Below, piece after piece: positions 19,099 through 64,000 of a DNA stretch of 64,000 nt. This DNA comes from Candidatus Blackburnbacteria bacterium (lineage in GTDB: Bacteria > Patescibacteriota > Microgenomatia > UBA8517 > UBA10165), in NCBI GenBank assembly GCA_016183565.1, contig JACPEJ010000001.1, forward strand, positions 358,479 through 422,478, in the 5' to 3' direction. The position numbers were made by a program, and so were the translations under genes. Under the pieces are notes generated by a model. It did not search any database. It was not told the DNA's origin and worked only from the letters and a program-made list of their open reading frames with translations. Positions within the stretch are counted from its first letter, which is position 1. Every line of letters begins with the position of its first letter.

Positions 19099-19115
19099 GA
19101 CTATTAAGGGTGGAC

Positions 19116-21233: not shown

Positions 21234-21257
21234 GCTTGTACAAATAGGGCTTCGTAG

Positions 21258-21290
21258 TACCCTTAGACGTGGTATCATTATATACTAGTT
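21258..21290. promoter_or_regulatory. compact divergent promoter region for the 21233(-) and 21309(+) genes, with overlapping -10 elements
   Basis: The 75-bp intergenic space contains 'CATTATATACT'. This reads TATACT on the + strand (21281-21286) and TATAAT on the - strand (21277-21282). The -35 elements are weak. Confidence 0.3.
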
Positions 21291-31125: not shown

Positions 31126-32376
31126 TTAGATAAACTTAATTTTTTTGGCTGCAACTGCGACCATTTTAAGAAGTAGCCAGCCATGGATAATACGATTGAT
31201 ATTGCTTTTACCATATTTTCTTTCTCTATATCTTACCGGTACTTCTATAATTTTTAAGTTTAATTTGGTGGCGCCAAACAAAAGGTCAAAGTCTCCGAAG
31301 GGGTCTAGTTCCCCAAATGTTTTTCTATTCTTTTCAATTTCTAAATAGTCTTTTCGAAAAAGAACTTTGGTGCCGCACAAAGTGTCTTTAATTTTTTGCC
31401 CTAAAAGGAAAGTGAAGGTGAGGCTAAATAATTTGTTGCCTAGATAGTTTAGAGATCTCATTGCTTGTTTGGGTACCGGATAAATAAGGCGCGAGCCATT
31501 TGCAAAATCGCAATGATTTTCTGAGAGTGCACGGTAGAACTTGATTAGATCAGAGGGAGGGACAGTTAGGTCTGCGTCAAGAATTATTAAAATATCATTC
31601 TTTGCTTTTTGGAAACCTAGGCGCACTGCGTCGGCTTTTCCTTTGTTTTTTTGTTTGCATAAAAGGGTCTTGAATTTTTTCGCGTTCATTATTTCTTTTT
31701 GTATTACGGCATAAGTATTGTCAGTTGAGTGTCCTTCTATAAATATAACTTCGGTTTTTTTCCCTAGATTTGGGATTTCTTTTAATAACTTTTTGATGTT
31801 ACCTGCTTCGTTGCGGGCTGGGATGATTATGGAGACCGAATAGTGTTTGGGTTGGGGTTTTAGACGGAATATTTGGTAGGTTACTAGACAAAGCTTGTTT
31901 ATTAGAGGTAGTTGTCCTATGAAGTTGTTTATTAGGGGTGAGAAGGATCCTAGGGGTATTGGTAGAAGAAGCCTTCTTCCTCTTTTTACCTCTTCGCACC
32001 CTTCTAGTTGGAAAATATTGTTAATGTCTTGTTGTGATAGCCAATTGGGTTCTCTTGGGTCTTTTTTTCGGAGACCAAAAAATGTAGCAAGGTCAAGAAT
32101 TGGTTTCCATAGAAAACTATAGCCAACTACCACGATGCGGCTGCGCGGTTTGCAGTATTTTTTTAGTTTTCCTACTGAGTTTTGTACATCTTCACTATAT
32201 GCCAAAGAATTTTGCAGTAGGAGGTAATCAGATTTTCCATTGGCTTTCTCTTCGCCGATTCTTGTTGAAGAATACCCTCGCGGAACGATTTGTTTAAAGA
32301 ACCTTTCCAGATCTTTCTGGTAATAATCTGCAAAGATATTCATCTTGTTGTTTTTGTGGTGATCCACTATTATCAT
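31126..32376 (-). CDS. GT2 polyprenyl-phosphate sugar synthase-like glycosyltransferase with a ~170-aa N-terminal extension of unknown function
   Basis: The C-terminal 245 aa read 'VSIIIPARNEAGNI', 'EVIFIEGHSTDNT', 'ILIILDADLTVPPSD', 'GSRLIYPVPKQAMRS' and 'KDTLCGTKVLFRKDY'. The N-terminal region 'MNIFADYYQKDLERFF...RIVVVGYSFLW' has no GT motif. Confidence 0.65.
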   Translation of the reverse strand: MIIVDHHKNNKMNIFADYYQKDLERFFKQIVPRGYSSTRIGEEKANGKSDYLLLQNSLAYSEDVQNSVGKLKKYCKPRSRIVVVGYSFLWKPILDLATFFGLRKKDPREPNWLSQQDINNIFQLEGCEEVKRGRRLLLPIPLGSFSPLINNFIGQLPLINKLCLVTYQIFRLKPQPKHYSVSIIIPARNEAGNIKKLLKEIPNLGKKTEVIFIEGHSTDNTYAVIQKEIMNAKKFKTLLCKQKNKGKADAVRLGFQKAKNDILIILDADLTVPPSDLIKFYRALSENHCDFANGSRLIYPVPKQAMRSLNYLGNKLFSLTFTFLLGQKIKDTLCGTKVLFRKDYLEIEKNRKTFGELDPFGDFDLLFGATKLNLKIIEVPVRYRERKYGKSNINRIIHGWLLLKMVAVAAKKIKFI

Positions 32377-34462: not shown

Positions 34463-35152
34463 ATTGTTGTGATTCTTATAGACTTTCTTATACCTTGCCT
34501 TAACCAACAACCTTTCCATGGCTTCATCTGTCAGTATATCAGCCTCGACACAAACTATCGTAGGTCTAAATTTCCCCCAATCGTTACTTTTTAAAACCTC
34601 AAGATCGTATCCCTCAACATCCACACTTAAAAAATCAATTTTTTTGTTTTTGCAATATTCTTTGAATATTTCACTTAGTCTTGAAACTTTTATTCTTGAA
34701 GTCTCAACTAGCTTAAATCCTTCCTTTTTATAATTCTCTGCGGCTTTTTTCGAAAAAGTTGAAAGTGTTTCCGGTTCAAACTTAAAATACTCAAGTTTTC
34801 CACTTTTGTTTGCAATCCCGAGGTTTAAGTTTGTGTCTCTGGGACGCGAGTTATAGAATTTCTTAATTTTTCGAGGATCTGGTTCAATATTTATTCCTGT
34901 CCAACCGCGTGCATAAAACCTCTTTGTGTTGCTGAGTCTTGTAGGATTGTATGCGCCCACATCAACGTAAAACCCAGATTTTCTATTTCCCAACAAGTTA
35001 TCGATCAAAATATCCTCTCCGTTTTGACTAAACGATTTTTGAAGAAACCCTCTTTTTAACATCAGAATCTCTCCGATTAAGTACTGAAATAGTCTCATTG
35101 GGCCGTACAGTTTTAAATAGTTGTAAGATTTTAGAATCATCGAGATTTTCAA
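34436..35152 (-). CDS. FkbM-family methyltransferase
   Basis: 'GFYVDVGAYNPTRLSNTKRFYARGWTGINIEPDP' and 'IDFLSVDVEGYDLEVL' are FkbM hallmarks. TTG start at 35152 with an internal ATG at 35140. Its 3' end overlaps the convergent GT4 gene by 27 nt. Confidence 0.7.
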   Translation of the reverse strand: MKISMILKSYNYLKLYGPMRLFQYLIGEILMLKRGFLQKSFSQNGEDILIDNLLGNRKSGFYVDVGAYNPTRLSNTKRFYARGWTGINIEPDPRKIKKFYNSRPRDTNLNLGIANKSGKLEYFKFEPETLSTFSKKAAENYKKEGFKLVETSRIKVSRLSEIFKEYCKNKKIDFLSVDVEGYDLEVLKSNDWGKFRPTIVCVEADILTDEAMERLLVKARYKKVYKNHNNLIFLLKKQ

Positions 35153-36222
35153 TAATGCGTATGCAACTGATAGTCTCTACATATTTGGCTAATTAGTTGG
35201 GGTCCTTCGAAGATAATACCTGTTATTAGTTGGATTAGGTCTGCGCCAGCGGAAAATTTCTCCAGGGCGTCTTTTGTATTAAACACGCCTCCGCAGCCAA
35301 TGATTGCGACATTGCCCCCAAACTTTTTACGTGTATGGGAAATGAGGTGGTTGGCACCTTTTGTAGTCGGTTTTCCACTGAAATTGCCTTTGAGGTTAGC
35401 GACATTTAAAATTTCGTTCTGATCGAAAGCCCGATTTTCTCTGTTTTTGACTAAGTTAGAAAATATGAAGCCACTGATTCCCTGGGTTAAAGCTGCCTCT
35501 ACTAACAAGTCGCTTTTTTTAGCGTCAATCTCATTGGGCATTTTTACAAAAATGGGCTTTTCCATACTAAGAGAGGTAACCTCTTTGACGAGATTTTTGA
35601 AATTTTGTACCTCGATAAACGACTCGGTCATGTTGGTATTTGGACAGCTTATATTTAGTTCGAAATATTTAATGTATTTTTTCTTTTTAAAGATATCAAA
35701 AGAAAATGTATAATCATCAATAGCTTTGTTGATTGTGTTGACTTTTGGACTGTTGGTACTGCCTATGCTTATTCCCACTGTGTGGCCCTGCAGGTCTTTT
35801 TTATCGAGCCTTTGAGCTACTGCAATGGCGCCTTCTGATTTGAAGCCCTTGTTAACTAATATTGACCTTGATTTAGGGAGTCTTACCAATCTTGGCTTAG
35901 GATTTCCTTCATAAGGTTTTGCTGTAACTGTACCAACTGTATTAAATCCAAAGCCTATGTACTTTAAGACTTTTGCCAGATGTCCATCGTAATCAAAACC
36001 TGCTGATAAACCGGTCGGGTTTTCAAAATCTATGCCAAGTACTTTCCTCTTTAAGGCTGGGTCTCTAAAGGCAAAGAGCCAAGATAGTAGACTGTTTTGG
36101 TTTTCTAGATTCTCTCCGAGCTTTGTGATTGTATCGTGTACAATTTCGGCATCTATCTGAAAGGCAATTGGTCTAAAGAGGTTTTTGTATAAAAGGGTTG
36201 CTATGTGACTTTTGTAATTCAT
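35149..36222 (-). CDS. pyrD: dihydroorotate dehydrogenase (class 2, quinone-type)-like flavoenzyme
   Basis: 'GIDFENPTGLSAGFDYDGH', 'NTVGTVTAKPYEGNPKPRLVRLPKSRSILVNKGFKSEG', 'ISCPNT' and 'IIGCGGVFNTKDALEKFSAGADLIQL'. ATG at 36222 overlaps the upstream TGA (ATGA). Confidence 0.65.
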   Translation of the reverse strand: MNYKSHIATLLYKNLFRPIAFQIDAEIVHDTITKLGENLENQNSLLSWLFAFRDPALKRKVLGIDFENPTGLSAGFDYDGHLAKVLKYIGFGFNTVGTVTAKPYEGNPKPRLVRLPKSRSILVNKGFKSEGAIAVAQRLDKKDLQGHTVGISIGSTNSPKVNTINKAIDDYTFSFDIFKKKKYIKYFELNISCPNTNMTESFIEVQNFKNLVKEVTSLSMEKPIFVKMPNEIDAKKSDLLVEAALTQGISGFIFSNLVKNRENRAFDQNEILNVANLKGNFSGKPTTKGANHLISHTRKKFGGNVAIIGCGGVFNTKDALEKFSAGADLIQLITGIIFEGPQLISQICRDYQLHTHY

Positions 36223-37628
36223 GGTTGAAATTTCTTGAGGACATTTTTCCCGACTCTTGCAGCATTGGCCATTATTGTTAATGTTGGTGGTTTTGCGGGC
36301 AATACTTTCCATGTTGAGGAATCGGCAATGTAAATTCTTTTGGCTTGGTGTAACCTCCCTTTTGAATCTGTTGACAGTTTACCTTGCTTAGATTGAAAAG
36401 AAACCCCGCCAGCGTAATGTGAAGTGACATTGCTTGTGATCGTTTTCATTGGAAGTAGCCCAAAAGACTGAATTTTTCTGTAGATCTTTTTCAGTTCCTC
36501 TTTGTGCTTTTTAATCTCCCTATCTGTTGTATGTGATGATACTTCTAAAACACCTATATCGCACTTTTCCTTTTTTAATCTACAGAAACTCTTATTTGAT
36601 TTAAATGTTGGAAAACGTACGTCTACTATTACCAGGTATGGTGCGATTATTGAAAAAAACAAAGAAGCAAGTGGCTTTGGTAAAGGAATATATTGAAGAG
36701 CCAAATCTTGCGCAAGAGGGTTACATCTATAAAACTGGACGAAAAAAGAATTTAAGTCTTGGTCAAGATCATTGCAAGTTAGTGAAACTTGGCCGAGGCT
36801 AGCTATATTATTCTGGCGTCTTTTTAGTAATGTTTGGGGGTGTAAGCATACAAGCATTGTGTGCCCTTTTGTCAAGAAAGGAACCTGGTAATTATAAAGC
36901 CTAAAGCTTTGCAAGAGAATTCTTGTGGTGTTAATGGCACCTGCTGCCAAAATTAAATAACGTGATTTAATATACGATTTTTCTTGACTCTCAATCGAAA
37001 TACTCTCGATTTCTACGTGTTTGTTTTTATCTTTTACTTTCAGAACCAATTGTTTGGGTATATAGGTAAAGTTTTTGTACTTTTTTAAATCTTCGATCAC
37101 ACTCTTAGTACGGTAAGGATATGCAATAGGTAGTCTATAAACTTGATTCTTTGCTTTTTTCAAGATTAGTTGTCCATGTAAATCAAGCTGTGGTTTAGTT
37201 TTAAGGTTTATGCGCTTTGCGATCTCTTTATATTCTTTTTGAATCTCTAGAGCTGGAAGACCAGTCTCAGCGAGCTCTGAATCTGTGAAATAGTCACAAA
37301 TGCCGTGCCAAATTTCTGACAAGCCACCCTTTGCCAAACTTTGGATGATCTCAATATTGCTTTGAACTTTCAGAAGTTGGTAAGTTTTGGTAAAAACATA
37401 ACCACTTTTTATTAAGAGATCATACGGGTTGCTTTTGTTGTGTAGTTTTTTGTTTATAGGTTGGTTATCTTGCTTTTTGCTGTCTAACCCGCCGTCTATA
37501 ATTGCAACTCGCAATCCTGCTTCAACTAGAGGGTATGCTGCGTGTACTCCCGCCGGGCCTGAACCCACAACGATCACATCATGGAGAGTGTTTGGCTTAG
37601 CTGTAGAATGGCCCGAATTGTGTAGCAT
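36219..37628 (-). CDS. GMC-family FAD-dependent oxidoreductase
   Basis: N-terminal 'VIVVGSGPAGVHAAYPLVEAGLRVAIIDGG' is the GxGxxG FAD site. The C-terminal 'HYAGGVSF...RIYIADSSTWKVLPAKPPTLTIMANAARVGKNV' is the GMC substrate-binding and active-site His region. Confidence 0.6.
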   Translation of the reverse strand: MLHNSGHSTAKPNTLHDVIVVGSGPAGVHAAYPLVEAGLRVAIIDGGLDSKKQDNQPINKKLHNKSNPYDLLIKSGYVFTKTYQLLKVQSNIEIIQSLAKGGLSEIWHGICDYFTDSELAETGLPALEIQKEYKEIAKRINLKTKPQLDLHGQLILKKAKNQVYRLPIAYPYRTKSVIEDLKKYKNFTYIPKQLVLKVKDKNKHVEIESISIESQEKSYIKSRYLILAAGAINTTRILLQSFRLYNYQVPFLTKGHTMLVCLHPQTLLKRRQNNIASLGQVSLTCNDLDQDLNSFFVQFYRCNPLAQDLALQYIPLPKPLASLFFSIIAPYLVIVDVRFPTFKSNKSFCRLKKEKCDIGVLEVSSHTTDREIKKHKEELKKIYRKIQSFGLLPMKTITSNVTSHYAGGVSFQSKQGKLSTDSKGRLHQAKRIYIADSSTWKVLPAKPPTLTIMANAARVGKNVLKKFQP

Positions 37629-37639: not shown

Positions 37640-38824
37640 CTAGCCTAGCAGGCGAGATATATTTTTACTAAAAATAATATTCCAGTCAAATTGTTTTACA
37701 TACTGCAAAGCGTTCTTCCTATATTCTTTCCATAACTTACGGTTAGATAAAAGTTTAATTACAGCATCTGCGAATGATTCGGTACTAAAATTAACGACCA
37801 TGCTACACCTTGCTTTCTGGATTTCTTTGGCAATAGAAGGTGCCTTCGTTGTTATAACTGGTATGCCAAGGGAAAGATACTCCTTAATTTTAGCGGGATC
37901 AGCGTTTTTGGCAGGGGGGTTGTTTTTTGTGCGGTATGGGGCAAGTGCAATTGCTGAATTGGAAATAATATTCAATGCAGTTTTGTTGCTTTCAACAAAT
38001 CCATGAAATTTAATCATTTGATTTACTTGAAGTTTCTGCGCTAGCTGTTTTAGATATTCCAACTGTTCTCCTCCACCAACAATTTCCAGGGTAACGTCAG
38101 GAATGGTTTTTGCAATGATTGGCAGAGCTTTAATTGCCAAATCTACTCCTCGAAAAGCTACAAGGTGTCCAATAAATACGAGTTTTGTTTTTTTTATTCT
38201 ATTCAACGGGATTATATTTCTTTGGTTTAACCATACACCTATTGGAACTGTAAACTGTCTGGAATGACCTGTTTCCGGTATACCGTTTTCTGCTCTAAAC
38301 CTTTTCATAAATGGTGAGACGTTCCAAGTTTCATCACAGTTCGCAACGCATAATTTGTCAAGTTTGTGATATATCCAATTGATAAATGTATTGCTAAACC
38401 TCTCTGGGTACAAATCAATTGTGTAATATATGACCTTATTTACTTTCCCAAGTTTTTTGAGCACCAAGCCCGCTAGAGCATTTAGGTTGTTAATGCCAAA
38501 ATATAAATCGTAAGTATTTCTTGATTTGAGTATCCAATATGTTGTGTAGAGAAAATCTTTAATATAGTGGCCTGACTCAGGAAGTATGACCCGAGGTGCT
38601 TTTGAAGTTTTTACAGGAGAGTTTCCATTGTAATGTTCAACTTCAGAGTGGAGCTTGTAACTTTCTTTAAGCAAAAGAAGTGGATGCTTAATATACAATA
38701 GAGACTTGCAGTTGTGTGTTAGCAGAAACCTTTTTAAGTCATCTCCTGGTATACAAGGCATTATTGATCTGTGTGTAACGATAGCTATATTCTTGCTTCC
38801 CAGGTTTATCTTTGGTCTGCCCAT
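37640..38824 (-). CDS. GT4-family glycosyltransferase (paralog family member)
   Basis: 'YYTIDLYPERFSNTFINWIYHKLDKLCVANCDETWNVSPFM' and 'KLVFIGHLVAFRGVDLAIKALPIIAKTIPDVTLEIVGGG'. There is a 29-bp divergent gap to the 38854 gene. Confidence 0.65.
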   Translation of the reverse strand: MGRPKINLGSKNIAIVTHRSIMPCIPGDDLKRFLLTHNCKSLLYIKHPLLLLKESYKLHSEVEHYNGNSPVKTSKAPRVILPESGHYIKDFLYTTYWILKSRNTYDLYFGINNLNALAGLVLKKLGKVNKVIYYTIDLYPERFSNTFINWIYHKLDKLCVANCDETWNVSPFMKRFRAENGIPETGHSRQFTVPIGVWLNQRNIIPLNRIKKTKLVFIGHLVAFRGVDLAIKALPIIAKTIPDVTLEIVGGGEQLEYLKQLAQKLQVNQMIKFHGFVESNKTALNIISNSAIALAPYRTKNNPPAKNADPAKIKEYLSLGIPVITTKAPSIAKEIQKARCSMVVNFSTESFADAVIKLLSNRKLWKEYRKNALQYVKQFDWNIIFSKNISRLLG

Positions 38825-50278: not shown

Positions 50279-51085
50279 ATGAGATTAGCAAAACCCCCTA
50301 AGTTAGATGTTTCGGATTGGCAAGTACCACCTTATAAAATTAACCAATTCCGTCCCAAACGCACAGAATATTGTGTTTGTATTCCGGTCATAAATGAGGG
50401 TACGAGGTTAAAAAAACAACTGGATCGAATGCGCCCTTTTTCAAAAGATATTGACATCATAATTTCGGACAAAGGGAGTTCAGATGGCTCAACTGATCCT
50501 AAGTTTCTAAGATCTAAGAATGTGAGAGCATTAATAACCCTAACAGGGCAAGGGCGACAGGGGTCACAATTGAGAGCCGGTTCTTCATTCGCGATAAAGG
50601 ACGGTTATCAAGGCATTATTATTTTAGATGGAAATAATAAAGATGGAGTTGAGGCTATACCCAGTTTTATTAAAAAGCTAGAAGAAGGTTACGACTATAT
50701 CCAAGGGTCTCGCTTTGCCAGAGGAGGAAAACACGCGAATACCCCCATGTCACGGTTTTTAGGAATTCGATTTGTGGCATCACCATTATTAAGCCTTGCT
50801 GCAGGTTACTGGTATACAGATGTTACCAATGGCTTTCGGGGGGTAAGTAAAAAATACATACTTCACCCTCGACTTAAACCGTTTAGAGATGAGTTTGTTG
50901 GGTATGAGTTTTTGATGTATTTAACAGTCAGGGCTAAACGTTTAGGTCTTAAAACTTTGGAGATACCAGTAAACAGGGTTTACCCAAGAGGAATGACTCC
51001 TACAAAAATAGTTGGTATTAGAAACAAACTTGACATGCTTTTAAAATTATTTAAAGTAGTGCTTGGGCATTTTAATCCAAATTGA
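50279..51085 (+). CDS. GT2 polyprenyl-phosphate mannose/sugar synthase-like glycosyltransferase (DPM1-like)
   Basis: 'CVCIPVINEGTRL', 'IIISDKGSSDGS', 'IILDGNNKDG', 'IQGSRFARGG' and 'TDVTNGFRGVSKKYI' are DPM1 hallmarks. Confidence 0.7.
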   Translation: MRLAKPPKLDVSDWQVPPYKINQFRPKRTEYCVCIPVINEGTRLKKQLDRMRPFSKDIDIIISDKGSSDGSTDPKFLRSKNVRALITLTGQGRQGSQLRAGSSFAIKDGYQGIIILDGNNKDGVEAIPSFIKKLEEGYDYIQGSRFARGGKHANTPMSRFLGIRFVASPLLSLAAGYWYTDVTNGFRGVSKKYILHPRLKPFRDEFVGYEFLMYLTVRAKRLGLKTLEIPVNRVYPRGMTPTKIVGIRNKLDMLLKLFKVVLGHFNPN

Positions 51086-55453: not shown

Positions 55454-56592
55454 CTACAAACCCATTTTTTTCAAGGCCTGAGAGTAGGTATTTTCCCATG
55501 TGTTGTCTGTTGCTCGTTTTATTGCGTTTTTCCGCATTTTTAAATAGGTTTTCTTGTCTTTTAATAGTTTTAATACAGCTTCAGCTTGCTCTTGGGGATT
55601 ATCTTTTGCAATTACTCCAGCCTCGTCCCTTTCAATCTCTTTTCCCAAGGGCGGTACTTGGGTTGTGATAACCGGTACACCTGCGGCAAGGTAAAGCCTT
55701 ATCTTCGTAGCATCGGCCCACCATCTGGGAGAGCCAGGTACTGCAAGATAAGGTGCAAGTCCGATTGCATACATACTTGTCTCTTTTGAGAGTTTAACTT
55801 GGTTGGATATGAAACCATGAAATATAACTTTATTGTTCAGTTTGAGTTTTTCGGTTAACTTCTTTAATCTTGTCATGTCTGGTTCGCCACTCCCGTAAAT
55901 GTGGAGTGATGTGCTGGGAATAGATTTTAACACTATTTTTAATGCTTTAATTGCAAGGTCAGGTCCGTTTATTTTGCCTAGAGTTCCCACAAAAACTAAA
56001 CTGTTGGGAATTATGCGAGATGTAGGAAGGTAATTTATTTGTTTGGGGAATAATGCATTTGGCACATGGATAACCGGTGTTGCTTTTTGAGGGTCAAGAC
56101 CAACTTTTATTCTTGCGGGCATCATGGCAAGTGAGACGTCCCAAATAAAGTCCGAGTGTGTCGCGGCATACCGATCAAGCCAAAGATAGAGGTCGTTAAA
56201 CCATTTGGGCTTGTATCTTTCTGGTGAATAGTCCGACACGTAATAAACCACTCTCCTAACTTTTCTTAGTTTTCGCAGAACAATACCTGCAAGCGCGTTG
56301 ATGGATTCCAAACCTATGAACAAGTCATATTTTTTACCTTCTAATAAAACGTACTCTAATACGGAAAAAAAATCGCGGATCTTGAAGATAACTGATGTTT
56401 CCGGTGTGTTGATAAATTTTAAAAAAGGATATAGAAGATATGAGGTTATGAAGTTTCGGGATCGTTTAATTAATTTGTTGTGTTGGTAGACCTCGAGAAA
56501 TGGGATAACGGAATCGCTTCCTGGATGTGGCTGCTCAATTAAAACAAATTTTTTGCTTTCGGAGCAAAGAACAAACTGAGAGGTTCTATCAT
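55454..56592 (-). pseudogene. GT4-family glycosyltransferase (paralog of the 33254 and 37640 genes) interrupted by a frameshift in a T6/A6 homopolymer at 56549-56554
   Basis: Tracked ORF 55454-56323 starts at 'MFIGLESINALAG', which aligns to residue ~100 of the paralogs. The same frame stays open upstream for ~90 more codons ('...KKFVLIEQPHPGSDSVIPFLEVY...VLEYVLLEGKKYDLFIGLES') with no ATG/GTG/TTG. The only ATG (56592) is in the +1 frame ('MIEPLSLFFAPKAKNLF*'). Adding one A to the A6 run would fuse the two frames into a ~379-aa protein. Confidence 0.5.
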
Positions 56593-56663
56593 GCCGTTGG
56601 TGGCTGTCCTCTCACTATTTGTTCGTACTGAGAAAGTTGCGAAGAGTATTGAACTTATTTTTT

Positions 56664-56691
56664 TTGCCATTTAAACTTCAAAGAGTATACT
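56664..56691 (+). promoter_or_regulatory. strong candidate sigma70-like promoter for the giant membrane-protein gene
   Basis: TTGCCA(56664-56669), a 16-nt spacer, TATACT(56686-56691), with an upstream T8 tract. ATG 56703 lies 11 nt downstream, so the mRNA is leaderless or has a very short leader. Confidence 0.45.
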
Positions 56692-56702
56692 TCAAGTATA
56701 TT

Positions 56703-59700
56703 ATGTGGTTCAAGTCAAAAGACAGGTTTTTACTGATTGGGATTTTATATGTTCTTGTGGTTCTTGTGGCATTATTTATCTTGACACTTACGTGGTTACC
56801 TCCGGGTTACACCCTGGCGGGACACGATTCGGGTTTGCCACTTGACGCAAAGGAATTCTTACGAACGCGTCTTTATGCTTGGGATGATCGCTTGGGTTTT
56901 GGCTTAGACAATTCTGTTAACCTTGGAAGCTTAACGATCCATTTTTTTGACTGGCTTTCAGCTATCATTGCTGGGGTACCGTATTCGGGTAACTACATCT
57001 CCGTCTTTTTTTGGTTAAGTTTAATTTTTGTATCAGCATTCTTCTTTGCATATCAATTAAAAGATATTTTTGGAAAAACTTTCATTTTTATCTTGCCGCC
57101 TCTTGCAACATTTAACTTTTATATTTTTCAGTCAGTTTTTATGCTTGAGAGAGGCAAGTTTGGAGTTTTCTCAGCAATGCTTATTCTCCTGACGGTGTAT
57201 TTTAGAGTGCAGAGTAGGAAAATGCGTGTTTTTTCGGCAGCTCTAATCTCATCGGTGGTATTCTCGATATTTAACGGCGGAGGACTATTTGGAATTACAT
57301 TATTTGGCGGAGTAGTTCTTGTGTTGGGACTGATGTTTCTTTCCTCGTTGTTTGCTGCGATAAAAGAGGATCAGTACAAGGATTTTAAGAGAATCATTTC
57401 CTTTTTGCTTCTAACAATTGCCCTCTACGTCGCATTTAATGCGTATTCGCTTCTCCCTTTTTTTGCTCATTATATCAAAGACGATCCAACCGCTATTTTC
57501 AAAGAATCACTTGCCAGAGTCAATCAAGAATGGCTTGAGTATGTGAGTCGGTCTGCGTCATATTTAAATTTATTTAGATTTTATGGTGTTCCGGATTGGT
57601 ACGGAGGATGGGAGGTATTAGACAAAGCAGATCCTTCTCACCCATACGCTTCTTTTTATCTTAACAACAAAGCCCTGGTCTTTATCAGTTTCCTTTTTCC
57701 TGTGTTTTCTTTCTCCAGTTTGCTATTGGCAAGACGCGGATTGCAGAGAAGAATTCTGGCCACTTTTGGAATGATTGCACTTTTGGGTATTTTCTTGGCT
57801 GCTGGTTCCCATAGGCCATTAGGATTCATCTACGAATTTTTGATGGAAAAATTGCCAGGTTTTGTGCTGTTTCGCTCAGCTTTCTACAAATTTGGAATTT
57901 TTTATCTGTTCGGCATGCTTGTTATGCTTGCTTTTACGATCAGTTTTTTGCTCGAGAGGCTCTCGGGTTTTCTACCCCCAAGGTTGGCTAAGGTTTCACT
58001 TGTGGTAGGTGTCTTTTTGTTTCTGGGACTGTGGTTTGGCTACCATTGGGTGTTGTTTGATGGTGCCAAGGTTTTTGCTTGGAAGACCGATCAAGCGACA
58101 AAGGTTCATGTGCCTTCTTATGTCTATGATTTTTCAAGTTGGGTGGAAGGGAGTGACTTGGGTGAGAGGAGGATGCTTCTACTACCTCCTGTCAATAAAG
58201 ATTGGGAGGCCGATGCGTATAAATGGGGATATTGGAGTCTTTCGCCCTTACCGTATGCCTTAAGTTCCGTAAGTATTTTATCAAATTGGCATGCGCTGAC
58301 AAATGATGAGAGAGCTTTGGTTAATAATCTTTATAGCGCAGTAAGAGGAATGGATGAGGTTAGATTTTTAACATTAGTAGAAAAGCTTAATATTGGGTAT
58401 TTTCTAGTAAGACACGATGTGCTGGTTGATTCTAGCTGGTCTGCCGTCGAGCGGCCGGAGAACTATCAGAAAGCATTGGAGTCATTCACGAGTGTGGATA
58501 AAATTAAGAGCTTTGGAGAGTGGGACGTATACAAGCTTGTACTAGATAATGATACTGGAGTTTATGCAACCAGAGTGCTTAATATCGCTCCAGACAAATA
58601 TGTATCTTTGGCTAATGATTTTTTCGGACAAGGGCATTCAATTGATCTGTCTGCAACAAAGTTATACAAAGACATTGATTACATAGCTTCTAACAAGATG
58701 GAGGTTTATGACTGTTTATCCTGTCGCCTGGAACGAAAAGCAAGTTTACAGAGCCTTCCTGAGGTGAGTTTGCTTCCAAGCTCGATATTTTACCCCCTTA
58801 AAGAGAGGCAAGAAGAAGAGCTTTTGTCACAGTCTAAGGACCCTGGAAGTAAGTTGGCGGATTATCTTGGTTTGGTTTTGAGGAGAACTGCTGAGCAAAA
58901 AAGGATGATTGATATGGATGTGAAAGAAAAATATTTGATGCAAAATGCGAAAGTCATAAGGGGCTACTTGGACAAAGTTTACTCACAATTAGAATCTTCG
59001 CCGGAGATTTTCCAAGACTTTGAGACCGCAAGTCTATTTCGGGACTTCTTAGGCCCTGTTGAGCGTGTGCTTAACGATGATGTTAAAAGTAGTGCATTTA
59101 AAGCCTCTGACCGTAACTTTATTGATGAAACACTTGGTATTCTTTGGAGTATAAACAGGATTAACGATTTTTTTGCGCCTTTTTTAACAAATCCTGAAAG
59201 GTGGTCGAACCGGAAGGTTTATAAAATAGATCTGCCTGGGGATGGGGAATATAACTTGTTCTTTCCTGTATCCTCTTTCCCTCAACATAAGAATGGAGAG
59301 ACCATCCTTCCCAAATCTGTGGAGTTGAAAAAAAATAATTGGAAAAAGACATTAAAAGTTGAAGAGGAAAAAGATGGTTGGCTTAGAGCTCCTGTTGATT
59401 ATGAAATTAGAGGACAAGCGGAGCTTCTCTTGAATTTTGAAGAATTACCGAATTTGTTGACTATCGATAGTTCAGGGTTGGAGGAGTTTTCCTCTGGTAA
59501 GGCAGCATGTTTCCGGGGTAATATAGCAAACTTTGACAGGAAGCGAGTATACGAGATTAGGGTATGGAGGACCGATAGACTTAGGCCAGCAAGAGCTATT
59601 TTTAAAGATAGGTCTTTTGTTTATTCTGAAAAACATGGGTTTTTGCAAGGCGAAGATAGTTTTGAAATACCGGTGATCGCTGGTGGAGGGTTTGCTAGGT

Positions 59701-60197
59701 ATGTCTTCTTCCCTTCGGTTTCAGCAAATATCATCTCTTTGTATGTTTGTAGTGATAATGTAGATCTTCCGCAGATTGACAAAATTGAGGTTATAGAATC
59801 TTTTGCACCGCCGATTATTGGAGTGACTGGTTTTAATCTGCCTGCTAATTCACTTGTAAATGTTGACTATGTTCGCGCTAATCCTACAGGATACGAAGCT
59901 GAGGTGGGTGATGTACAGGTCCCGTATGTTTTAGTTTTGAACCAAAAGTTTAATCCCTCTTGGAGCTTGTCTGTTAAAAACAGGGATGGTAGTTCTACTC
60001 CACTTAAGGAGCATTTCAAAGTGGATGGTTATGCTAATGGTTGGCTTGTTAACCAGCCGGGTGCTAAGAAGTTCCAAATTGAATATACGCCGCAATCTGT
60101 GCTTCGTGCTTCTAGTATCTTTTCACTAATATCAGTGTTCGTTGGTATCTCTTGGCTTGTTGTTTTGCTGATTAGGAGCAAAAAGAATGGGAATTAG
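56703..60197 (+). CDS. giant (~1160 aa) membrane protein: N-terminal polytopic GT-C-like domain, long extracytoplasmic beta-rich region, C-terminal TM anchor (AftD/DUF3367-like architecture)
   Basis: 'LPPGYTLAGHDSGLPLDAKEFLRTRLYAWDDRLGFG' follows TM1. There are about 12 TM helices in the first 450 aa. A ~700-aa hydrophilic region is followed by the terminal 'IFSLISVFVGISWLVVLLI' TM helix. The first ATG is 56703; the track starts at TTG 56619. Confidence 0.5.
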   Translation: MWFKSKDRFLLIGILYVLVVLVALFILTLTWLPPGYTLAGHDSGLPLDAKEFLRTRLYAWDDRLGFGLDNSVNLGSLTIHFFDWLSAIIAGVPYSGNYISVFFWLSLIFVSAFFFAYQLKDIFGKTFIFILPPLATFNFYIFQSVFMLERGKFGVFSAMLILLTVYFRVQSRKMRVFSAALISSVVFSIFNGGGLFGITLFGGVVLVLGLMFLSSLFAAIKEDQYKDFKRIISFLLLTIALYVAFNAYSLLPFFAHYIKDDPTAIFKESLARVNQEWLEYVSRSASYLNLFRFYGVPDWYGGWEVLDKADPSHPYASFYLNNKALVFISFLFPVFSFSSLLLARRGLQRRILATFGMIALLGIFLAAGSHRPLGFIYEFLMEKLPGFVLFRSAFYKFGIFYLFGMLVMLAFTISFLLERLSGFLPPRLAKVSLVVGVFLFLGLWFGYHWVLFDGAKVFAWKTDQATKVHVPSYVYDFSSWVEGSDLGERRMLLLPPVNKDWEADAYKWGYWSLSPLPYALSSVSILSNWHALTNDERALVNNLYSAVRGMDEVRFLTLVEKLNIGYFLVRHDVLVDSSWSAVERPENYQKALESFTSVDKIKSFGEWDVYKLVLDNDTGVYATRVLNIAPDKYVSLANDFFGQGHSIDLSATKLYKDIDYIASNKMEVYDCLSCRLERKASLQSLPEVSLLPSSIFYPLKERQEEELLSQSKDPGSKLADYLGLVLRRTAEQKRMIDMDVKEKYLMQNAKVIRGYLDKVYSQLESSPEIFQDFETASLFRDFLGPVERVLNDDVKSSAFKASDRNFIDETLGILWSINRINDFFAPFLTNPERWSNRKVYKIDLPGDGEYNLFFPVSSFPQHKNGETILPKSVELKKNNWKKTLKVEEEKDGWLRAPVDYEIRGQAELLLNFEELPNLLTIDSSGLEEFSSGKAACFRGNIANFDRKRVYEIRVWRTDRLRPARAIFKDRSFVYSEKHGFLQGEDSFEIPVIAGGGFARYVFFPSVSANIISLYVCSDNVDLPQIDKIEVIESFAPPIIGVTGFNLPANSLVNVDYVRANPTGYEAEVGDVQVPYVLVLNQKFNPSWSLSVKNRDGSSTPLKEHFKVDGYANGWLVNQPGAKKFQIEYTPQSVLRASSIFSLISVFVGISWLVVLLIRSKKNGN

Positions 60198-60552
60198 AAA
60201 ATTCACTTTTGCAGATATAGAGAGGGTAGAAAAAACTCTTTTCCAATGGATTCTTCCAAAAAGGTATAGACTGGTACTTTTACTTTTTGTTATTTCTATG
60301 TTGACTGCCGCAGGGTTTGCCCCCTATTTTAATTTAATTCTAAATTTTTACATAATTGTGCTCGTTTCTCTTGTTCTTACACCCATTATTTTAAATGTGG
60401 ACTCTAAAATATTTTTTGTGGTAGGCATAGTGTGTTTTTTTCTTGCAGCACTTCTGTGGTTTATGGGTCAGACTGAAGAGGCAGAAGTTTTGACTGAATA
60501 TATTTTTATCATTCTACTGTCTGGTTCTTTTAAAGCTTTTCTGTCGTCTTGA
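60187..60552 (+). CDS. small 3-TM membrane protein of unknown function
   Basis: 121 aa with three hydrophobic helices. Its start overlaps the upstream stop. Its 3' end overlaps the convergent gene by 39 nt, so it could be spurious. Confidence 0.3.
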   Translation: MGIRKFTFADIERVEKTLFQWILPKRYRLVLLLFVISMLTAAGFAPYFNLILNFYIIVLVSLVLTPIILNVDSKIFFVVGIVCFFLAALLWFMGQTEEAEVLTEYIFIILLSGSFKAFLSS

Positions 60553-62481
60553 TATCCAAAGAGAATATGAAAGTATTGTAAGAAGCGTAAAAATACTGAT
60601 AGTTCTACCTAGTTGATAACTCTCAGGGTAATAATACAGTTCGACGGACTGTATTTCGTTTCCGAATGTAACTTTTATTAATTTGTTAGTTGTTTCAACT
60701 ACTCTGATTTTTTTGCCATCATTTGTTTTTGCTTTCCATCCAGGGCTCCAGGTTTCAGCAAGAACCATTTCTTTCGCTTTGTGTTTTGATGTGTCAATAA
60801 TGATTTTGTTAGGTGAGTAATACAGAATCGGGGCTTCGATTTCTGATTTATTGCCTTTAGCAACGAAATATGCTCTAGATTTGAATAGTGTATTCTCGAA
60901 AACAAAAAATTTATCGAACTGTTTGACTAACTTGAAATCTATTCCAGTGAGCTTGTGTGGGCTGATAACGTACTTAACATTATGGTCTGCAAGTATTGAG
61001 GCAATAGGTTGTATCTCGCGGAAGTTATATATAGAAGGAGGGGGAAGCATTGACGTATATTTATCCCAAAAAACTTGCGATAGTTGAATGAACTGATTGT
61101 AATAATTTTTTTGGTAAATCGTGCCATAACCTTCGATCGTCTCGAGATTGTACTTTGCTACATCTTGTTGGGACAAACAACGGTTGACACAAAAAACACG
61201 GAAACGTTCTGGATCCTTTTTGAGGAATTCATATAGGGCAACTGGAACTTTTTCTCTTTGGTGGGGTATTGGTCTTTCAAGTCGTATCCACGAAAGTATA
61301 AGCAATTCGCCTATCGTTAGTGCAGCGAGTACTCCCGCAAGTCTTTTTAGTTTTTTCTTTTGAAGAGTCTCAAAACCAGAACCGGCAAGGAAGACTAAGC
61401 TCAAGATTACGATGAACCAGTTTCTTGTTGATACACGGCTTAAGACATACCAATCAGATGACAACAACAAAGGTTGGATTGGCGAAACGTTGTTGAGACT
61501 GATAAGAAATATCCCAGAAACAAAAAGGATTAGTAAAATTTTGAATTTGTTTTGGAGTTTTAAGAATCCGATTAAGGCAAGAATAGATATAAAAAATCCG
61601 ATGGCGATCCATTTTTCGGAGTCGAGATCGTTAATTAAATTTTTTCCACCAAAAACGTGAGGGTATATTGCTTTTATAAACTCAGTTTTTCCATTCCATT
61701 TAGGATATACATCGCGGTCTTGGAGCAATATAAATCGAGTAGTTTGGGGTAGCCATTCTAATTGCGGGAAGAGTGTTATTGCAGTAAGGCCAATAGTAAT
61801 GGCGATACCAAAACCCAGAAATATTAAGGTTTTCAGGGAACGATTCTTGGAAAAAAAATAACTTCCTCCGACAAATAAGACTGTTGATGCGGCCGCTGTG
61901 ACAAAAGTTGTTGCAAACGTAAAAAAAAGTCCCGATAGACTGATTGCTAAAAGTATAGACCATTTAAAATTCGGAAATTTAATTAATTTTATGGCAGCAA
62001 GTAAGAGGTATGGCATCCATGCCGTTGTCGCTACAAATGGAAAATGGCCTGTTTCTAGAAAACCTGCGGTTCTAGGGAAAGTAATGTAAAATATGGCGGT
62101 AAAAATACTGGATGTTTTTGAAAAACGTAACCCCTTTTTGGCTACTAGATAAGTGCCTAAACCTCCAAAAAAGGTGTGAAGTATGAACGATGCGATGAAC
62201 GCATAGTCAATTGGCAAGACAAGAAAAATAATATTTGGAAGATAAAACAAGAATGATCCTGGATCGGAAATGAGTGGTGTGCCTGAAAAAAACATATTGT
62301 TCCATAAGGGTAGTGTATGATTTTGAAGAAGAGATTCTTTTGTAAAGTAGAAAATTGGCCAGTAGAATTCCTGAAGGTCATTTCCGCGATTTAGAATGAT
62401 TGCTGGATTTAGGATCGCTGGTAAGTATAATAGTAAAGTTATAGCTAAAATTACTAATAGACAGGTTGTATTTTGTCTCAT
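60514..62481 (-). CDS. YfhO-family-like GT-C membrane glycosyltransferase
   Basis: 'NRGNDLQEFYWPIFYFTKESLLQNHTLPLWNNMFFSGTPLISDP' is the YfhO N-terminal D..Q..P...G.lP.W...G.P signature. About 13 TM helices, then a C-terminal extracytoplasmic domain and a final TM. ATG 62481 is preferred; the alternative ATG 62565 would overlap the divergent gene's start. Confidence 0.5.
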   Translation of the reverse strand: MRQNTTCLLVILAITLLLYLPAILNPAIILNRGNDLQEFYWPIFYFTKESLLQNHTLPLWNNMFFSGTPLISDPGSFLFYLPNIIFLVLPIDYAFIASFILHTFFGGLGTYLVAKKGLRFSKTSSIFTAIFYITFPRTAGFLETGHFPFVATTAWMPYLLLAAIKLIKFPNFKWSILLAISLSGLFFTFATTFVTAAASTVLFVGGSYFFSKNRSLKTLIFLGFGIAITIGLTAITLFPQLEWLPQTTRFILLQDRDVYPKWNGKTEFIKAIYPHVFGGKNLINDLDSEKWIAIGFFISILALIGFLKLQNKFKILLILFVSGIFLISLNNVSPIQPLLLSSDWYVLSRVSTRNWFIVILSLVFLAGSGFETLQKKKLKRLAGVLAALTIGELLILSWIRLERPIPHQREKVPVALYEFLKKDPERFRVFCVNRCLSQQDVAKYNLETIEGYGTIYQKNYYNQFIQLSQVFWDKYTSMLPPPSIYNFREIQPIASILADHNVKYVISPHKLTGIDFKLVKQFDKFFVFENTLFKSRAYFVAKGNKSEIEAPILYYSPNKIIIDTSKHKAKEMVLAETWSPGWKAKTNDGKKIRVVETTNKLIKVTFGNEIQSVELYYYPESYQLGRTISIFTLLTILSYSLWISRRQKSFKRTRQ

Positions 62482-62545
62482 TTGTTTCCTTAGGATATCA
62501 TAAATGTTGTTTTTACCTGGCAGGTATGTTAATCTTTTTAACAGT

Positions 62546-63064
62546 ATGAAGGTTACAGGCGTCATATTTTTTAGTTTTCTATTTGGTATTTTATCCTTTT
62601 CTTTTCCATATAGTGCTTTAGCTCAAACTGATACTGCTCCTGTTGCGGCTGAGGAGGTAACTTATGAAAAAGTTAATCCAGATGGTGGGTTTGCGTACCT
62701 CCAGAAGAGATTTAGTGAAAAGGCGAAATTGTTCTTTCTTTCTTTTTCGACGGAGCGATCGGAGGATTATTATAGGCAATTAGCTAATAGGAGGTTGGCA
62801 GAGGTGAAGTACATAATAGATCAAAATAAGATGGCTTATTTTGAAAAAGCTACAGTTAGATACTCAACAGCAGTTGGAAATTGGGTTGAGTATATAAATA
62901 AAAAAGGTCTAAGTCGCGAAAAAGAACCTGCGGTTCAACTTCTTTCGCAGCATGTACCGGTTGTTCAAAAGTTGATGGAGAAATACGATCCGACTACGGC
63001 AGAATGGCGTTTTGTTAAACACGATTTAGATTATTTAAATATTTATATTTCCCAGCTTAAATAA
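62546..63064 (+). CDS. small secreted protein, paralog of the 18529 gene
   Basis: Signal-peptide-like 'MKVTGVIFFSFLFGILSFSFPYSALAQT' followed by 'DTAPVAAEE'. 'FAYLQKRFSEKAKLFFLSFSTERSEDYYRQLANRRLAEVKYII' aligns with 'FYSLKLIKEQVQGWFIFDGSKKADYQVFLGTKRVLESEKLI' in the 18529 protein. Confidence 0.45.
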   Translation: MKVTGVIFFSFLFGILSFSFPYSALAQTDTAPVAAEEVTYEKVNPDGGFAYLQKRFSEKAKLFFLSFSTERSEDYYRQLANRRLAEVKYIIDQNKMAYFEKATVRYSTAVGNWVEYINKKGLSREKEPAVQLLSQHVPVVQKLMEKYDPTTAEWRFVKHDLDYLNIYISQLK

Positions 63065-63127: not shown

Positions 63128-63295
63128 ATGTTTTTGCGCCTAGCTTTTTTGTGTATACTTTCTAGTTTTTTGCTCATTGCGCTTCTTCTTGCGACTGGGC
63201 ATCCTGGATTTGCTATTCGAATTGCTAATTATCTGTTTCTTCTAATTTTGGCTATAACGATAGTGGGCTTAATACATGGGAAAATTCAAAAATAG
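63128..63295 (+). CDS. possible 55-aa small hydrophobic protein / leader peptide
   Basis: 'MFLRLAFLCILSSFLLIALLLATGHPGFAIRIANYLFLLILAITIVGLIHGKIQK'. It sits immediately after a good promoter and overlaps the next ORF's start by 20 nt. It is not in the ORF track because it is under 60 aa. Confidence 0.25.
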   Translation: MFLRLAFLCILSSFLLIALLLATGHPGFAIRIANYLFLLILAITIVGLIHGKIQK

Positions 63296-64000
63296 TATCT
63301 TGCTTCTAGGTCTGGTTGTTATTCCAGTTATTTTGGTTTTTAGAGCATTTTTTTTGCTTGGTCCGGCGGTTTGGGGGGATGCTCCGTATTTTTACCCCGA
63401 AGCATTTAGGGATTTTTTCTCCGAGCCTCTTGTTTGGGAAAGCAGAGGCAGATTGGGAGTAGTGAATGATCTTTATTTTATTTATCCTTTGATGCTTATT
63501 TATCGGGGACTTGGTTTTTTGGGTTTAAGTAATGATTTGGTTATTCGGGCCCTTTTTTACTTTCCCGCAATATTTTTTGCTTTTTTATCGCCTTGGCTAC
63601 TCGCTCGATATCTTCGATTTTCGCCTATTGTGGTCATGTTTTCGAGTCTTGTTTATGTTCTTAATACTTACTTTATTCTTGTTGTTGACGGTGGCCAGGT
63701 GGGTGTTGCCTTGGCTTATGGTTTGTTTCCGTTTGCCCTTCTCGAGCTTTTTAAGTTAGTTGACAAAAGAGGAACTTCACAGTTTTTTACTAGCTTATGT
63801 GTGTTCATGTTACTTGTAATTGCTGATGTAAGGTTTGCGTTAATTGCAATTTTTACATTTTTTGTTTGGTTGGTTCTTAATCGGTTGAGTGTACAGCGGA
63901 GAAGGCTGATATTTTTTGGTATCGCTGTTTTGGCGCTTAGTTCGTATTGGTTGATTCCAAATTTGAGACTTGAACCGACTACTGGTTCTGGTACTAGATC
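63276..64000 (+). CDS. N-terminal part of a polytopic membrane protein, truncated at the 3' end by the window edge (GT-C-like candidate)
   Basis: The frame stays open from ATG 63276 to the window end ('MGKFKNSILLLGLVVIPVILVFRAFFLLGPAVWGDAPYFYPEAFRDFF...'). At least 6 hydrophobic helices. It is missing from the ORF track because no stop falls inside the window. Confidence 0.45.
   Translation, partial: MGKFKNSILLLGLVVIPVILVFRAFFLLGPAVWGDAPYFYPEAFRDFFSEPLVWESRGRLGVVNDLYFIYPLMLIYRGLGFLGLSNDLVIRALFYFPAIFFAFLSPWLLARYLRFSPIVVMFSSLVYVLNTYFILVVDGGQVGVALAYGLFPFALLELFKLVDKRGTSQFFTSLCVFMLLVIADVRFALIAIFTFFVWLVLNRLSVQRRRLIFFGIAVLALSSYWLIPNLRLEPTTGSGTR

Follow-up and report, generated by a model that had tools for sequence, protein, structure and literature searches.

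The stretch of DNA analysed here, called the window in the following, comprises 64,000 nucleotides of a contig from Candidatus Blackburnbacteria bacterium (JACPEJ010000001.1, positions 358,479 to 422,478 of the forward strand), a Microgenomates member of the Candidate Phyla Radiation (CPR). Its largest gene, as the initial annotation of this DNA had already stated, lies at 56703 to 60197 and encodes a membrane protein of 1,164 amino acids, followed in length by an open reading frame (ORF) of 720 codons. The protein is probably a glycosyltransferase of the GT-C class related to the mycobacterial enzyme AftD, and the main point of interest is the operon conserved in CPR bacteria, in which the AftD-like gene is followed by genes for a small membrane protein with a PYxN motif and for a second GT-C protein that resembles MmpA. 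The AftD-like gene and the parts of its product, including the transmembrane (TM) segments and a region resembling carbohydrate-binding modules (CBM), are as follows:

56703 to 60197, forward strand: probable AftD-like GT-C glycosyltransferase gene, 1,164 residues plus stop (ORF, homologues, structural model, fold match)
56703 to 58073, forward strand: membrane GT-C domain, residues 1 to 457, with about 11 TM helices (hydropathy, secondary structure of the model, invariant columns)
58074 to 58712, forward strand: extracytoplasmic alpha/beta domain, residues 458 to 670 (colinear hidden Markov model, HMM, alignment to AftD 439 to 569; P471, Y473, P495, W508-G-Y-W-S512, D572)
58713 to 58724, forward strand: CxxC motif formed by C671 and C674 (invariant)
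58770 to 59210, forward strand: helical insert, residues 690 to 836, DUF5667-like (long helices in the model, sub-threshold DUF5667 score)
59211 to 60086, forward strand: all-beta region, residues 837 to 1128, of the CBM-like beta-sandwich type (separate model, Foldseek)
60087 to 60185, forward strand: single C-terminal TM anchor, residues 1129 to 1161 (hydropathy, model; basic tail RSKKNGN after the TM segment)

The ORF is unbroken from the ATG at 56703 to the stop at 60197 (window G+C content, 38%), and its translation is identical to the NCBI entry 'hypothetical protein HYU80_02200' of a Candidatus Blackburnbacteria metagenome-assembled genome (MAG). The first possible start in this frame is a TTG at 56619, which would yield a product of 1,192 residues. 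About 70 related loci have an ATG 26 to 40 residues upstream of a conserved G[HY]D motif, in many cases preceded by a stop one to five codons earlier. ATG 56703 is therefore taken as the correct start, and the TTG start is ruled out by the same ATG position and upstream stops. About 80 homologues of 1,100 to 1,190 residues can be aligned with the protein from end to end, and the composition of its hydrophilic region (about residues 458 to 1128) is ordinary. A frameshift that makes two genes appear as one, and an outer region of unrelated low-complexity sequence, either of which the initial annotation had named as fatal to its reading, are excluded by these homologues and by this composition, respectively.

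The domain order proposed from the sequence was borne out by hydropathy and by an AlphaFold2 model of the whole protein (predicted local distance difference test, pLDDT, 88.1; predicted template modelling score, pTM, 0.78). The polytopic N-terminal domain, proposed to comprise about 450 residues, extends with about 11 TM helices to around residue 457 and carries the motif GHDSGLPLD...YAWDDRLGFG after the first TM helix (residues 40 to 67), within a first outer loop (residues 32 to 97) that contains short helices. The hydrophilic outer region, proposed to be about 700 residues long, spans approximately residues 458 to 1128 (about 670 residues), and the lone C-terminal TM anchor covers residues 1129 to 1161. 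Both ends of the protein are basic (MWFKSKDR... and ...RSKKNGN), which by the positive-inside rule would place the termini in the cytoplasm and the middle on the extracytoplasmic side. The protein possesses only four cysteines (C671, C674, C936 and C1016), all of which are invariant and located in the outer region, where they likely form disulfides or a metal site on the outer face of the membrane.

The alpha/beta domain is the counterpart of the soluble GT-C domain of AftD, and matches of relatives to the Pfam family GT-C_AftD span approximately residues 275 to 607. The helical insert scores 16.8 bits against DUF5667 (PF18915) at residues 690 to 743, under the cut-off of 27 bits; the cut-off is exceeded by the relatives P0038 (31.2 bits) and P0052 (32.5 bits), and 19 of 43 family members match DUF5667 at E-values up to 0.01. 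Structure prediction for the rest of the outer region revealed folds of the kind the initial annotation had suggested looking for, namely CBM-like beta-sandwiches (residues 837 to 1128). When residues 837 to 1131 were modelled separately (pLDDT 88.7), Foldseek matches included multidomain carbohydrate-active enzymes (GH101 and a GH31-type glucosyltransferase), tandem CBM22 domains, Cry/Vip3 toxins, neuropilin domains and AftD (E 2e-4, probability 1.0); the region is therefore assigned to the CBM-like beta-sandwich type. The last part of the beta region is a module common to AftD (residues 1061 to 1142 versus AftD 1197 to 1275) and to the MmpA-like neighbour (residues 1015 to 1159 versus 763 to 880).

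AftD is an essential mycobacterial cell-wall enzyme and has been proposed as a drug target. The initial annotation had guessed that the protein is a GT-C enzyme of the AftD/DUF3367 type, and this guess agrees with both profile and fold comparisons, in which AftD ranks first among solved structures. When a profile built from 78 homologues was searched against the PDB, Mycobacterium abscessus AftD (6w98, 6wbx) was the sole meaningful match (E 0.009); it aligned in three colinear parts, namely the first outer loop, the alpha/beta domain outside the membrane and the C-terminal beta module with its TM segment. An N-terminal-only profile yielded an AftD alignment no better than that of the full profile. 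In a Foldseek search with the full model, AftD 6w98 (E 1.5e-17) was followed by yeast STT3 (E 1.3e-6) and ArnT (E 1.5e-2); the identity in the structural alignment with AftD is about 11%. The family PF11847 (GT-C_AftD, formerly DUF3367) is matched by 22 of 43 relatives over the span given above, with a best E-value of 5.5e-10, and five of the eight members that were scanned singly exceed its 26-bit cut-off (P0003, P0024, P0035, P0038 and P0067; 26.3 to 38.3 bits). No match of the AftD-like protein to YfhO (PF09586) was obtained at E-values up to 1, and there was no Pfam hit to the STT3 or PglB families. The protein further combines a polytopic core within the norm of the GT-C class (7 to 13 TM helices) and an outer loop after the first TM helix with an acidic residue in that loop and the likeness in fold. 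The gene product is thus likely to belong, at some distance, to the AftD branch of the GT-C glycosyltransferases; strict membership of the AftD family, in the sense of an arabinofuranosyltransferase regulated by acyl carrier protein (ACP), is not supported.

The AftD-like proteins form a large, unstudied family in CPR/Microgenomates bacteria. An exhaustive profile search of 1.84 billion cluster representatives (50% identity) retrieved 10,165 sequences at E-values of at most 1e-3 and 1,650 at E-values of at most 1e-30. Among loci with informative titles from GTDB species genomes, the hosts are Blackburn-, Davies-, Woese-, Gottesman-, Levy- and Roizmanbacteria as well as other Patescibacteria, with one locus each titled Candidatus Saccharimonadales and Candidatus Parcubacteria; many MAG titles, such as 'uncultured Gammaproteobacteria', were set aside as presumed placeholder labels. 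For AftD itself, the structural study reported homologues in Actinobacteria only (10.1101/2019.12.22.885152). A search of the literature found no papers on DUF5667 and nothing on GT-C enzymes in CPR bacteria, and for DUF3367 the only paper found was an annotation study of M. abscessus.

Conserved residues could be compared with those that matter in AftD. Across 63 sequences, down to an identity of 25%, G40, D42, W60, N138, N191, W277, G295 and W299 are invariant, as are G368, P385, F387, R391, K396, P471, P495 and D572. D42 (codon 56826 to 56828) is invariant in both the 78- and the 63-sequence sets and aligns with the likewise invariant D35 of the MmpA-like family, and the motif PGF..FR391..YK396F lies within the membrane domain (residues 1 to 457). 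Five residues have been described as essential for AftD (10.1101/2019.12.22.885152), which was confirmed in M. smegmatis (10.64898/2026.07.31.741936); two of them, D41 and K361, have clear counterparts here, two appear, on weak alignments, to have none, and K39 is ambiguous. The corresponding stretches are:

AftD DTKxDLxxNPLRF..W..LPFGQ; here GHDSGLPLDAKEF..W60..GFG67; D42 is two to three residues out of register with D41
AftD FRNVHK361F; here FR391SAFYK396F; aligned by HMMER, K396 at the position of K361
AftD LLRGTDSW272; here LFRFYGVPDW299; likeness by eye
AftD TWGLTRD474E475PL; here KWGYWSLSPL (L513/S514); the acidic pair appears not to be conserved
AftD region of E251; here residues near K259, variable; aligned by eye, E251 not conserved

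These equivalences rest on HMM-to-fragment alignments and motif inspection rather than on a profile-profile alignment, because a 131-residue AftD query produced short fragments only and the fetched aftD loci were frameshift-rich. The AftD sequences used for the comparison were fragments of PDB alignments and two actinobacterial aftD loci from such frameshift-rich assemblies.

Two genes accompany the AftD-like gene in most of its relatives, and both are present in the window:

60187 to 60552, forward strand: small membrane protein of 121 residues with three to four TM segments and the PYxN motif (P46, Y47, N49), overlapping the AftD-like stop by 11 nucleotides
63276 to 64000, forward strand: start of the MmpA-like GT-C paralogue, 881 residues in full, which continues past the end of the window (16574 to 19216 in locus L001)

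A PYxN homologue follows the AftD-like gene in 54 of the 61 loci with enough downstream sequence; it starts between 40 nucleotides before and 7 nucleotides after the end of the AftD-like gene, and an overlap of 4 or 11 nucleotides is most common. The homologues comprise 85 to 150 residues, and in their alignment the proline of the motif is invariant and the tyrosine and asparagine are nearly so. In the window, the sequence AGGAG at 60174 to 60178, 8 nucleotides before the PYxN ATG, is among the few Shine-Dalgarno-like motifs. The initial annotation had regarded the AftD-like gene as independently expressed, which is doubtful, since a small membrane-protein gene abuts or overlaps its stop in these 54 loci and the MmpA-like gene is usually next. 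The PYxN protein is possibly a flippase or a subunit.

The MmpA-like protein also has an invariant aspartate in its first outer loop (GDAPYFYPE). A comparison of the two family profiles with hhalign reached a probability of 99.94% (E 1.4e-36, 531 columns), in which D42 is aligned with D35 and the PGF..FR..KF motifs coincide, and both proteins end in the same kind of C-terminal beta module and TM segment. Judged by these alignments, the MmpA-like and the AftD-like proteins are paralogues. The former has neither a Pfam hit nor a sequence relative in the PDB; the NCBIfam model of MmpA, NF053599, matches it with an E-value of 2.7e-13. This model is also matched by 40 of 42 members of the paralogue family (best E 9.6e-19), with scores that are all far under the equivalog cut-off (49 versus 210 bits).

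Among the 58 loci whose sequence extends at least 2.5 kb downstream, 44 carry the MmpA-like gene after the AftD-like gene, at a distance of up to 1 kb in 32 of them and of up to 8 kb in 12 more, and the usual order in relatives is AftD-like, PYxN, MmpA-like on the same strand. Members of the Blackburnbacteria clade have two inserted genes in front of the MmpA-like gene, one for a membrane protein of 655 residues on the minus strand and one for a DUF5667 protein. Neither Pfam and NCBIfam nor the PDB yielded a match to the polytopic 655-residue protein (60514 to 62481, reverse strand). On visual inspection, it ends in a way similar to the 'W-S-P-G-W ... TM' C-terminus of the GT-C proteins nearby; a relationship to the AftD-like protein was rejected, as hhalign assigned it a probability of 1.3%.

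The gene pair echoes, as an unexpected counterpart in CPR bacteria, the association of aftD with mmpA in mycobacteria, whose locus has been described (10.64898/2026.07.31.741767). In the aftD locus of Lawsonella clevelandensis, a member of the Mycobacteriales, 20 of 42 MmpA-like queries from CPR bacteria match a gene in fragments that adjoins a GT4 gene and lies some 5 kb downstream from aftD, which is roughly the place of mmpA on the published locus map; only one AftD-like query matches there. This Lawsonella locus (CP140010.1, 8435 to 19631 of L086) appears as many short ORFs in a frameshift-rich assembly, in the order DUF2613, aftD, an ORF with a weak Acyl_transf_3 match that is a candidate tmaT, PorA, the mmpA-like region and GT4. 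A wider synteny, in which the CPR GT4 would correspond to Rv0225 and the CPR methyltransferase to MtrP, is unsupported, as tblastn revealed no match to the Lawsonella locus.

The region upstream of the AftD-like gene contains the following elements:

56684 to 56691, both strands: palindromic -10 box AGTATACT; TATACT is 11 nucleotides before ATG 56703 on the forward strand and 13 nucleotides before the GT4 ATG at 56670 on the reverse strand
56664 to 56669, forward strand: TTGCCA, proposed as a -35 box by the initial annotation; overlaps the GT4 start codon (CAT, 56668 to 56670)
55454 to 56670, reverse strand: divergent GT4 glycosyltransferase gene, 405 residues when intact (Pfam Glycos_transf_1)

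The hexamers on which a near-consensus promoter had been proposed are all present, namely TTGCCA, a spacer of 16 nucleotides and TATACT (56686 to 56691), with 11 nucleotides to the ATG, but only the -10 part of that promoter holds up. Both -10 boxes keep their distance to the two genes in the orthologous loci L003, L005, L006 and L013, whose proteins are 52 to 61% identical in the N-terminal 630 residues. With 31 to 32 nucleotides between the genes (L003 and L005) the boxes are merged, and with 53 to 54 nucleotides (L006 and L013) they lie apart. On the AftD-like side of locus L004, the side that was examined, TATACT likewise stands 10 nucleotides before the ATG. The -35 hexamer is not conserved, as CCTTCA stands at the equivalent place in L005, and lies inside the adjoining GT4 gene: the starts of the two genes are 32 nucleotides apart, so the upstream region is the 5' part of the GT4 gene rather than intergenic DNA. 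Nor is the site as a whole the best promoter in the window, as had been claimed, since 23 sites score at least 10 of 12 and three reach 11 of 12; between positions 50000 and 64000, promoter-like sites are even fewer (30) than expected from shuffled sequence (35). The comparison of orthologous loci does not support a strong -35/-10 promoter. It does provide good comparative evidence for what would be real -10 elements with very short or absent leaders for both the AftD-like and the GT4 gene. The leaderless-like start proposed for the AftD-like gene is in keeping with the conserved -10 box 10 to 11 nucleotides before its ATG; it is not a peculiarity of this gene. A Shine-Dalgarno-like motif precedes only 6 of 50 genes in the window, and a -10-like hexamer is located 4 to 13 nucleotides before the start in 13 of 51 genes, compared with 6% of positions chosen at random. 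This organism thus seems to initiate translation largely without Shine-Dalgarno sequences, and compact divergent promoters and starts that lack this motif are a general feature of the window.

Five divergent gene pairs with 17 to 36 nucleotides between their starts are found in the window: 19116 to 21278 (reverse) and 21309 (forward), 22376 to 23500 (reverse) and 23537 (forward), 31126 to 32376 (reverse) and 32394 (forward), 37640 to 38824 (reverse) and 38854 (forward), and 55454 to 56670 (reverse) and 56703 (forward). Most of them have a -10-like box (at least five of six positions) 4 to 13 nucleotides before one or both starts, and several gaps contain palindromic sequence of the TATAC type, which suggests compact bidirectional promoters that would give rise to leaderless or near-leaderless mRNAs. 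The GT4 gene of the last pair, a close homologue of which is found near the AftD-like gene in many loci, is frameshifted in the window: a run of six T at 56549 to 56554 corresponds to seven T in two Logan assemblies of the same population (L001 and L002), in which the gene is intact. The difference might reflect either an assembly error or real homopolymer variation.

The whole window is, by its gene content, a glycan-biosynthesis island. Pfam scans of about 50 ORFs revealed at least 11 GT-C-like membrane proteins (PMT_2, PMT, PTPS_related), about 9 GT2, about 7 GT4 and about 9 methyltransferase genes, as well as nucleotidyl-transferases, an epimerase/dehydratase, a GHMP kinase, an AsnB-type amidotransferase, a Wzx-type flippase and two small DUF5667 proteins. 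The same scans recovered neither a UbiA-type phosphoribosyltransferase nor a family recognised as DprE1 or DprE2, and no Acyl_transf_3. One of the GT2 genes could provide a donor:

50279 to 51085, forward strand: GT2 gene, candidate polyprenyl-phosphate sugar synthase (Pfam Glycos_transf_2)

Its NCBIfam matches are weak and sub-threshold, mostly to AglJ, ArnC, PgfS and dolichyl-phosphate hexose transferase, and its product is a possible donor maker. At 2201 to 12277 (forward strand), six tandem genes encode putative glycosyltransferases of the PMT_2, PMT or PTPS_related type with 518 to 578 residues. The two small DUF5667 proteins (18529 to 19098 and 62504 to 63064, both forward) each adjoin a large polytopic protein on the opposite strand (19116 to 21278 and 60514 to 62481, respectively); BLASTP detected no pairwise similarity between the helical insert of the AftD-like protein and the neighbouring DUF5667 protein, nor between the two DUF5667 proteins. 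A protein of the dihydroorotate-dehydrogenase family (E 9e-56) and a FAD/GMC-type oxidoreductase are encoded inside the island at 35149 to 37628 (reverse strand) and could be sugar-modifying redox enzymes rather than enzymes of the pyrimidine pathway.

Taken together, the AftD-like protein is likely a GT-C glycosyltransferase of the AftD superfamily that acts, with its operon partners, on a surface or cell-wall glycan of this CPR bacterium. For such an enzyme an AftD-like mode of action is most likely, in which donor, acceptor, catalysis, complex formation and transcription start are all inferred, whereas homology, fold, conserved residues, gene order and the conserved -10 box were observed. 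Transcription would probably begin only some nucleotides upstream of the ATG, driven by a -10 box that the gene shares, back-to-back, with the divergent GT4 gene. With its termini in the cytoplasm, the protein would use its 11 or so TM helices to build the GT-C core, which would bind, on the outer side of the membrane, a sugar donor carried by a lipid (polyprenyl phosphate). The invariant loop of Asp42, together with R391 and K396, may then catalyse the transfer of the sugar onto a growing surface or cell-wall glycan, while the outer alpha/beta domain and the CBM-like beta-sandwiches would hold the acceptor and the C-terminal TM segment would tether these outer domains to the membrane. Its probable partners are the small membrane protein with the PYxN motif and the MmpA-like protein, and the glycan island of 64 kb would supply the substrates.

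Several observations weigh against this assignment. The sequence similarity to AftD is marginal (E about 0.001 to 0.01), global template-modelling scores reach only 0.41 to 0.46, and neither Pfam nor NCBIfam gave a hit for this particular protein, with nothing for PF11847 at E-values up to 1. The positions of E251 and D474/E475 appear to be neither acidic nor conserved, a provisional statement given the weak alignments. Furthermore, the PYxN protein belongs to no recognisable family, as it has no Pfam or NCBIfam match, GtrA included, and in the window two other genes separate the MmpA-like from the AftD-like gene.

Four other explanations were considered, the best surviving of which is nevertheless improbable. 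It holds that the protein resembles an oligosaccharyltransferase or ligase and moves a whole lipid-diphosphate-linked glycan, flipped by Wzx, onto a protein of the surface layer (S-layer), a pilin or the cell wall. STT3 is indeed the second-best fold match, and several loci have genes for a Wzx/MOP flippase, a GT2 enzyme and a methyltransferase downstream of the AftD-like/MmpA-like pair; however, the E-value for AftD is better than that for STT3 by about eleven orders of magnitude, the protein lacks Pfam hits to STT3 and PglB, and the motif WWDYG is absent from both the sequence and the consensus, which instead have WGYWS (from W508) in a context that matches the TWG of AftD.

It is considerably less probable still that the protein is a true AftD orthologue, i.e., an arabinofuranosyltransferase that uses decaprenyl-phospho-arabinose to build arabinan. 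AftD is the closest solved structure and its Pfam family the closest one, and the MmpA-like neighbour mirrors the mycobacterial aftD locus. Against this, a UbiA-type phosphoribosyltransferase and a recognised DprE1 or DprE2 are missing among the window ORFs scanned, the ACP-binding bundle of TM13 to TM16 that is needed for AftD function is absent, the equivalents of E251 and D474/E475 appear to be unconserved, and the identity to AftD is low, as stated above.

At about the same very low probability, if anything slightly lower, the protein would be a non-catalytic scaffold or chain-length ruler that organises other enzymes. Such a role would fit the long helical DUF5667-like insert, the large outer domains and the apparent absence of two of the catalytic candidates of AftD, and AftD and TmaT of Mycobacteriales form a functional complex (10.64898/2026.07.31.741936, 10.64898/2026.07.31.741767). 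It is difficult to reconcile with the first-loop aspartate and the R391/K396 motif, which are strictly invariant in sequences that share only 25% identity. Moreover, mycobacterial AftD with a mutated catalytic site is non-functional even though the complex forms (10.64898/2026.07.31.741936), and the Pfam scans of the window ORFs revealed no Acyl_transf_3, to which the candidate tmaT of Lawsonella has a weak match. The roles as a ruler or in S-layer anchoring that the initial annotation had also raised are speculation. Lastly, the chance that the gene is an artefact, be it fused genes, a frameshifted ORF or low-complexity filler, is negligible: nothing supports it directly, although the adjoining GT4 gene does have a homopolymer frameshift in this assembly, and it counts as already refuted by about 80 end-to-end homologues of 1,100 to 1,190 residues, by the best 150 of the 10,165 cluster representatives, which are nearly all full length, and by the ordinary composition and a model that is confident throughout.

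An AftD-superfamily glycosyltransferase that is encoded next to an MmpA-like paralogue in CPR bacteria would have consequences beyond this locus. The phenotype of MmpA concerns trehalose mycolates, i.e., glycolipids of mycolic acids that are characteristic of Mycobacteriales, and to our knowledge its molecular role has not been established. As far as we know, mycolic acids and arabinogalactan are confined to Mycobacteriales. The pairing of AftD and MmpA, so far regarded as specific for the mycobacterial wall, would be much older or more widespread. If CPR bacteria lack both mycolic acids and arabinogalactan, they would offer a simpler comparative system for the role of the AftD/MmpA pair, which would speak for MmpA being fundamentally a glycosyltransferase. 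The AftD-like family would also add to the picture of bacteria with reduced genomes that invest heavily in surface glycans. As a tentative and rather doubtful extension, the AftD-like/PYxN/MmpA-like operon might represent an ancient envelope-glycan module of CPR bacteria and Actinobacteria, in which the two GT-C paralogues act together in a complex on a single polymer; the mycobacterial functions of AftD and MmpA in ligating arabinogalactan and exporting trehalose mycolates would then be later specialisations, and the DUF5667-like insert a spacer or oligomerisation element specific for CPR bacteria.

Among known systems, the oligosaccharyltransferases STT3, PglB and AglB share the GT-C fold and provide the second-best structural match, but WWDYG is absent here and the match is much weaker than that to AftD. 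In three-component systems, the polyprenyl-phosphate sugar is synthesised by a GT2 enzyme and flipped by a small membrane protein, after which a GT-C enzyme with or without a CBM adds the sugar on the outside (PMC8035078, PMC11127046). The systems GtrA/GtrB/GtrC, CsbB/GtcA/YfhO and ArnC/ArnT and the GT136 pentofuranose systems resemble the locus described here, which has a GT2 with weak matches mostly to such synthases, a small membrane protein coupled to a GT-C enzyme, and CBM-like domains, the roles of which are inferred in our case; they differ in that the protein studied here lacks a Pfam hit to YfhO or another GT-C family, that no GtrA match was found, and that two paralogous GT-C enzymes are coupled.

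MmpA (NCgl2761/Rv0226c, NF053599) is the closest known relative of the downstream paralogue, not of the AftD-like protein, and has been reported to lack homologues outside corynebacteria and mycobacteria (PMC8698533). Like its CPR counterparts, it possesses an AftD-like TM core and is encoded in an aftD locus, whereas the CPR proteins vary between 430 and 1,030 residues and some carry an extra C-terminal beta module.

The system closest to the AftD-like protein is AftD itself (Rv0236c; M. abscessus structures 6W98, 6WBX and 6WBY; PF11847). In AftD, a four-helix bundle formed by TM13 to TM16 binds acyl carrier protein and is required for function (10.1101/2019.12.22.885152), whereas the protein described here has no such bundle and stops three residues past its single C-terminal TM segment. 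It further differs from AftD by its DUF5667-like insert and its CPR host, and no arabinose-donor or TmaT-like genes were seen in the window. What both proteins have in common is a GT-C core of about 11 TM helices with an aspartate in the first loop, the W..FG motif, the R...K-F motif and, apparently and by eye, a tryptophan in the long outer loop (W272 of AftD, W299 here); an outer alpha/beta domain followed by CBM-like beta-sandwiches and a TM segment; a C-terminal module with the pattern N-P-x-W ... N-G-W; and an MmpA-like gene in the locus.

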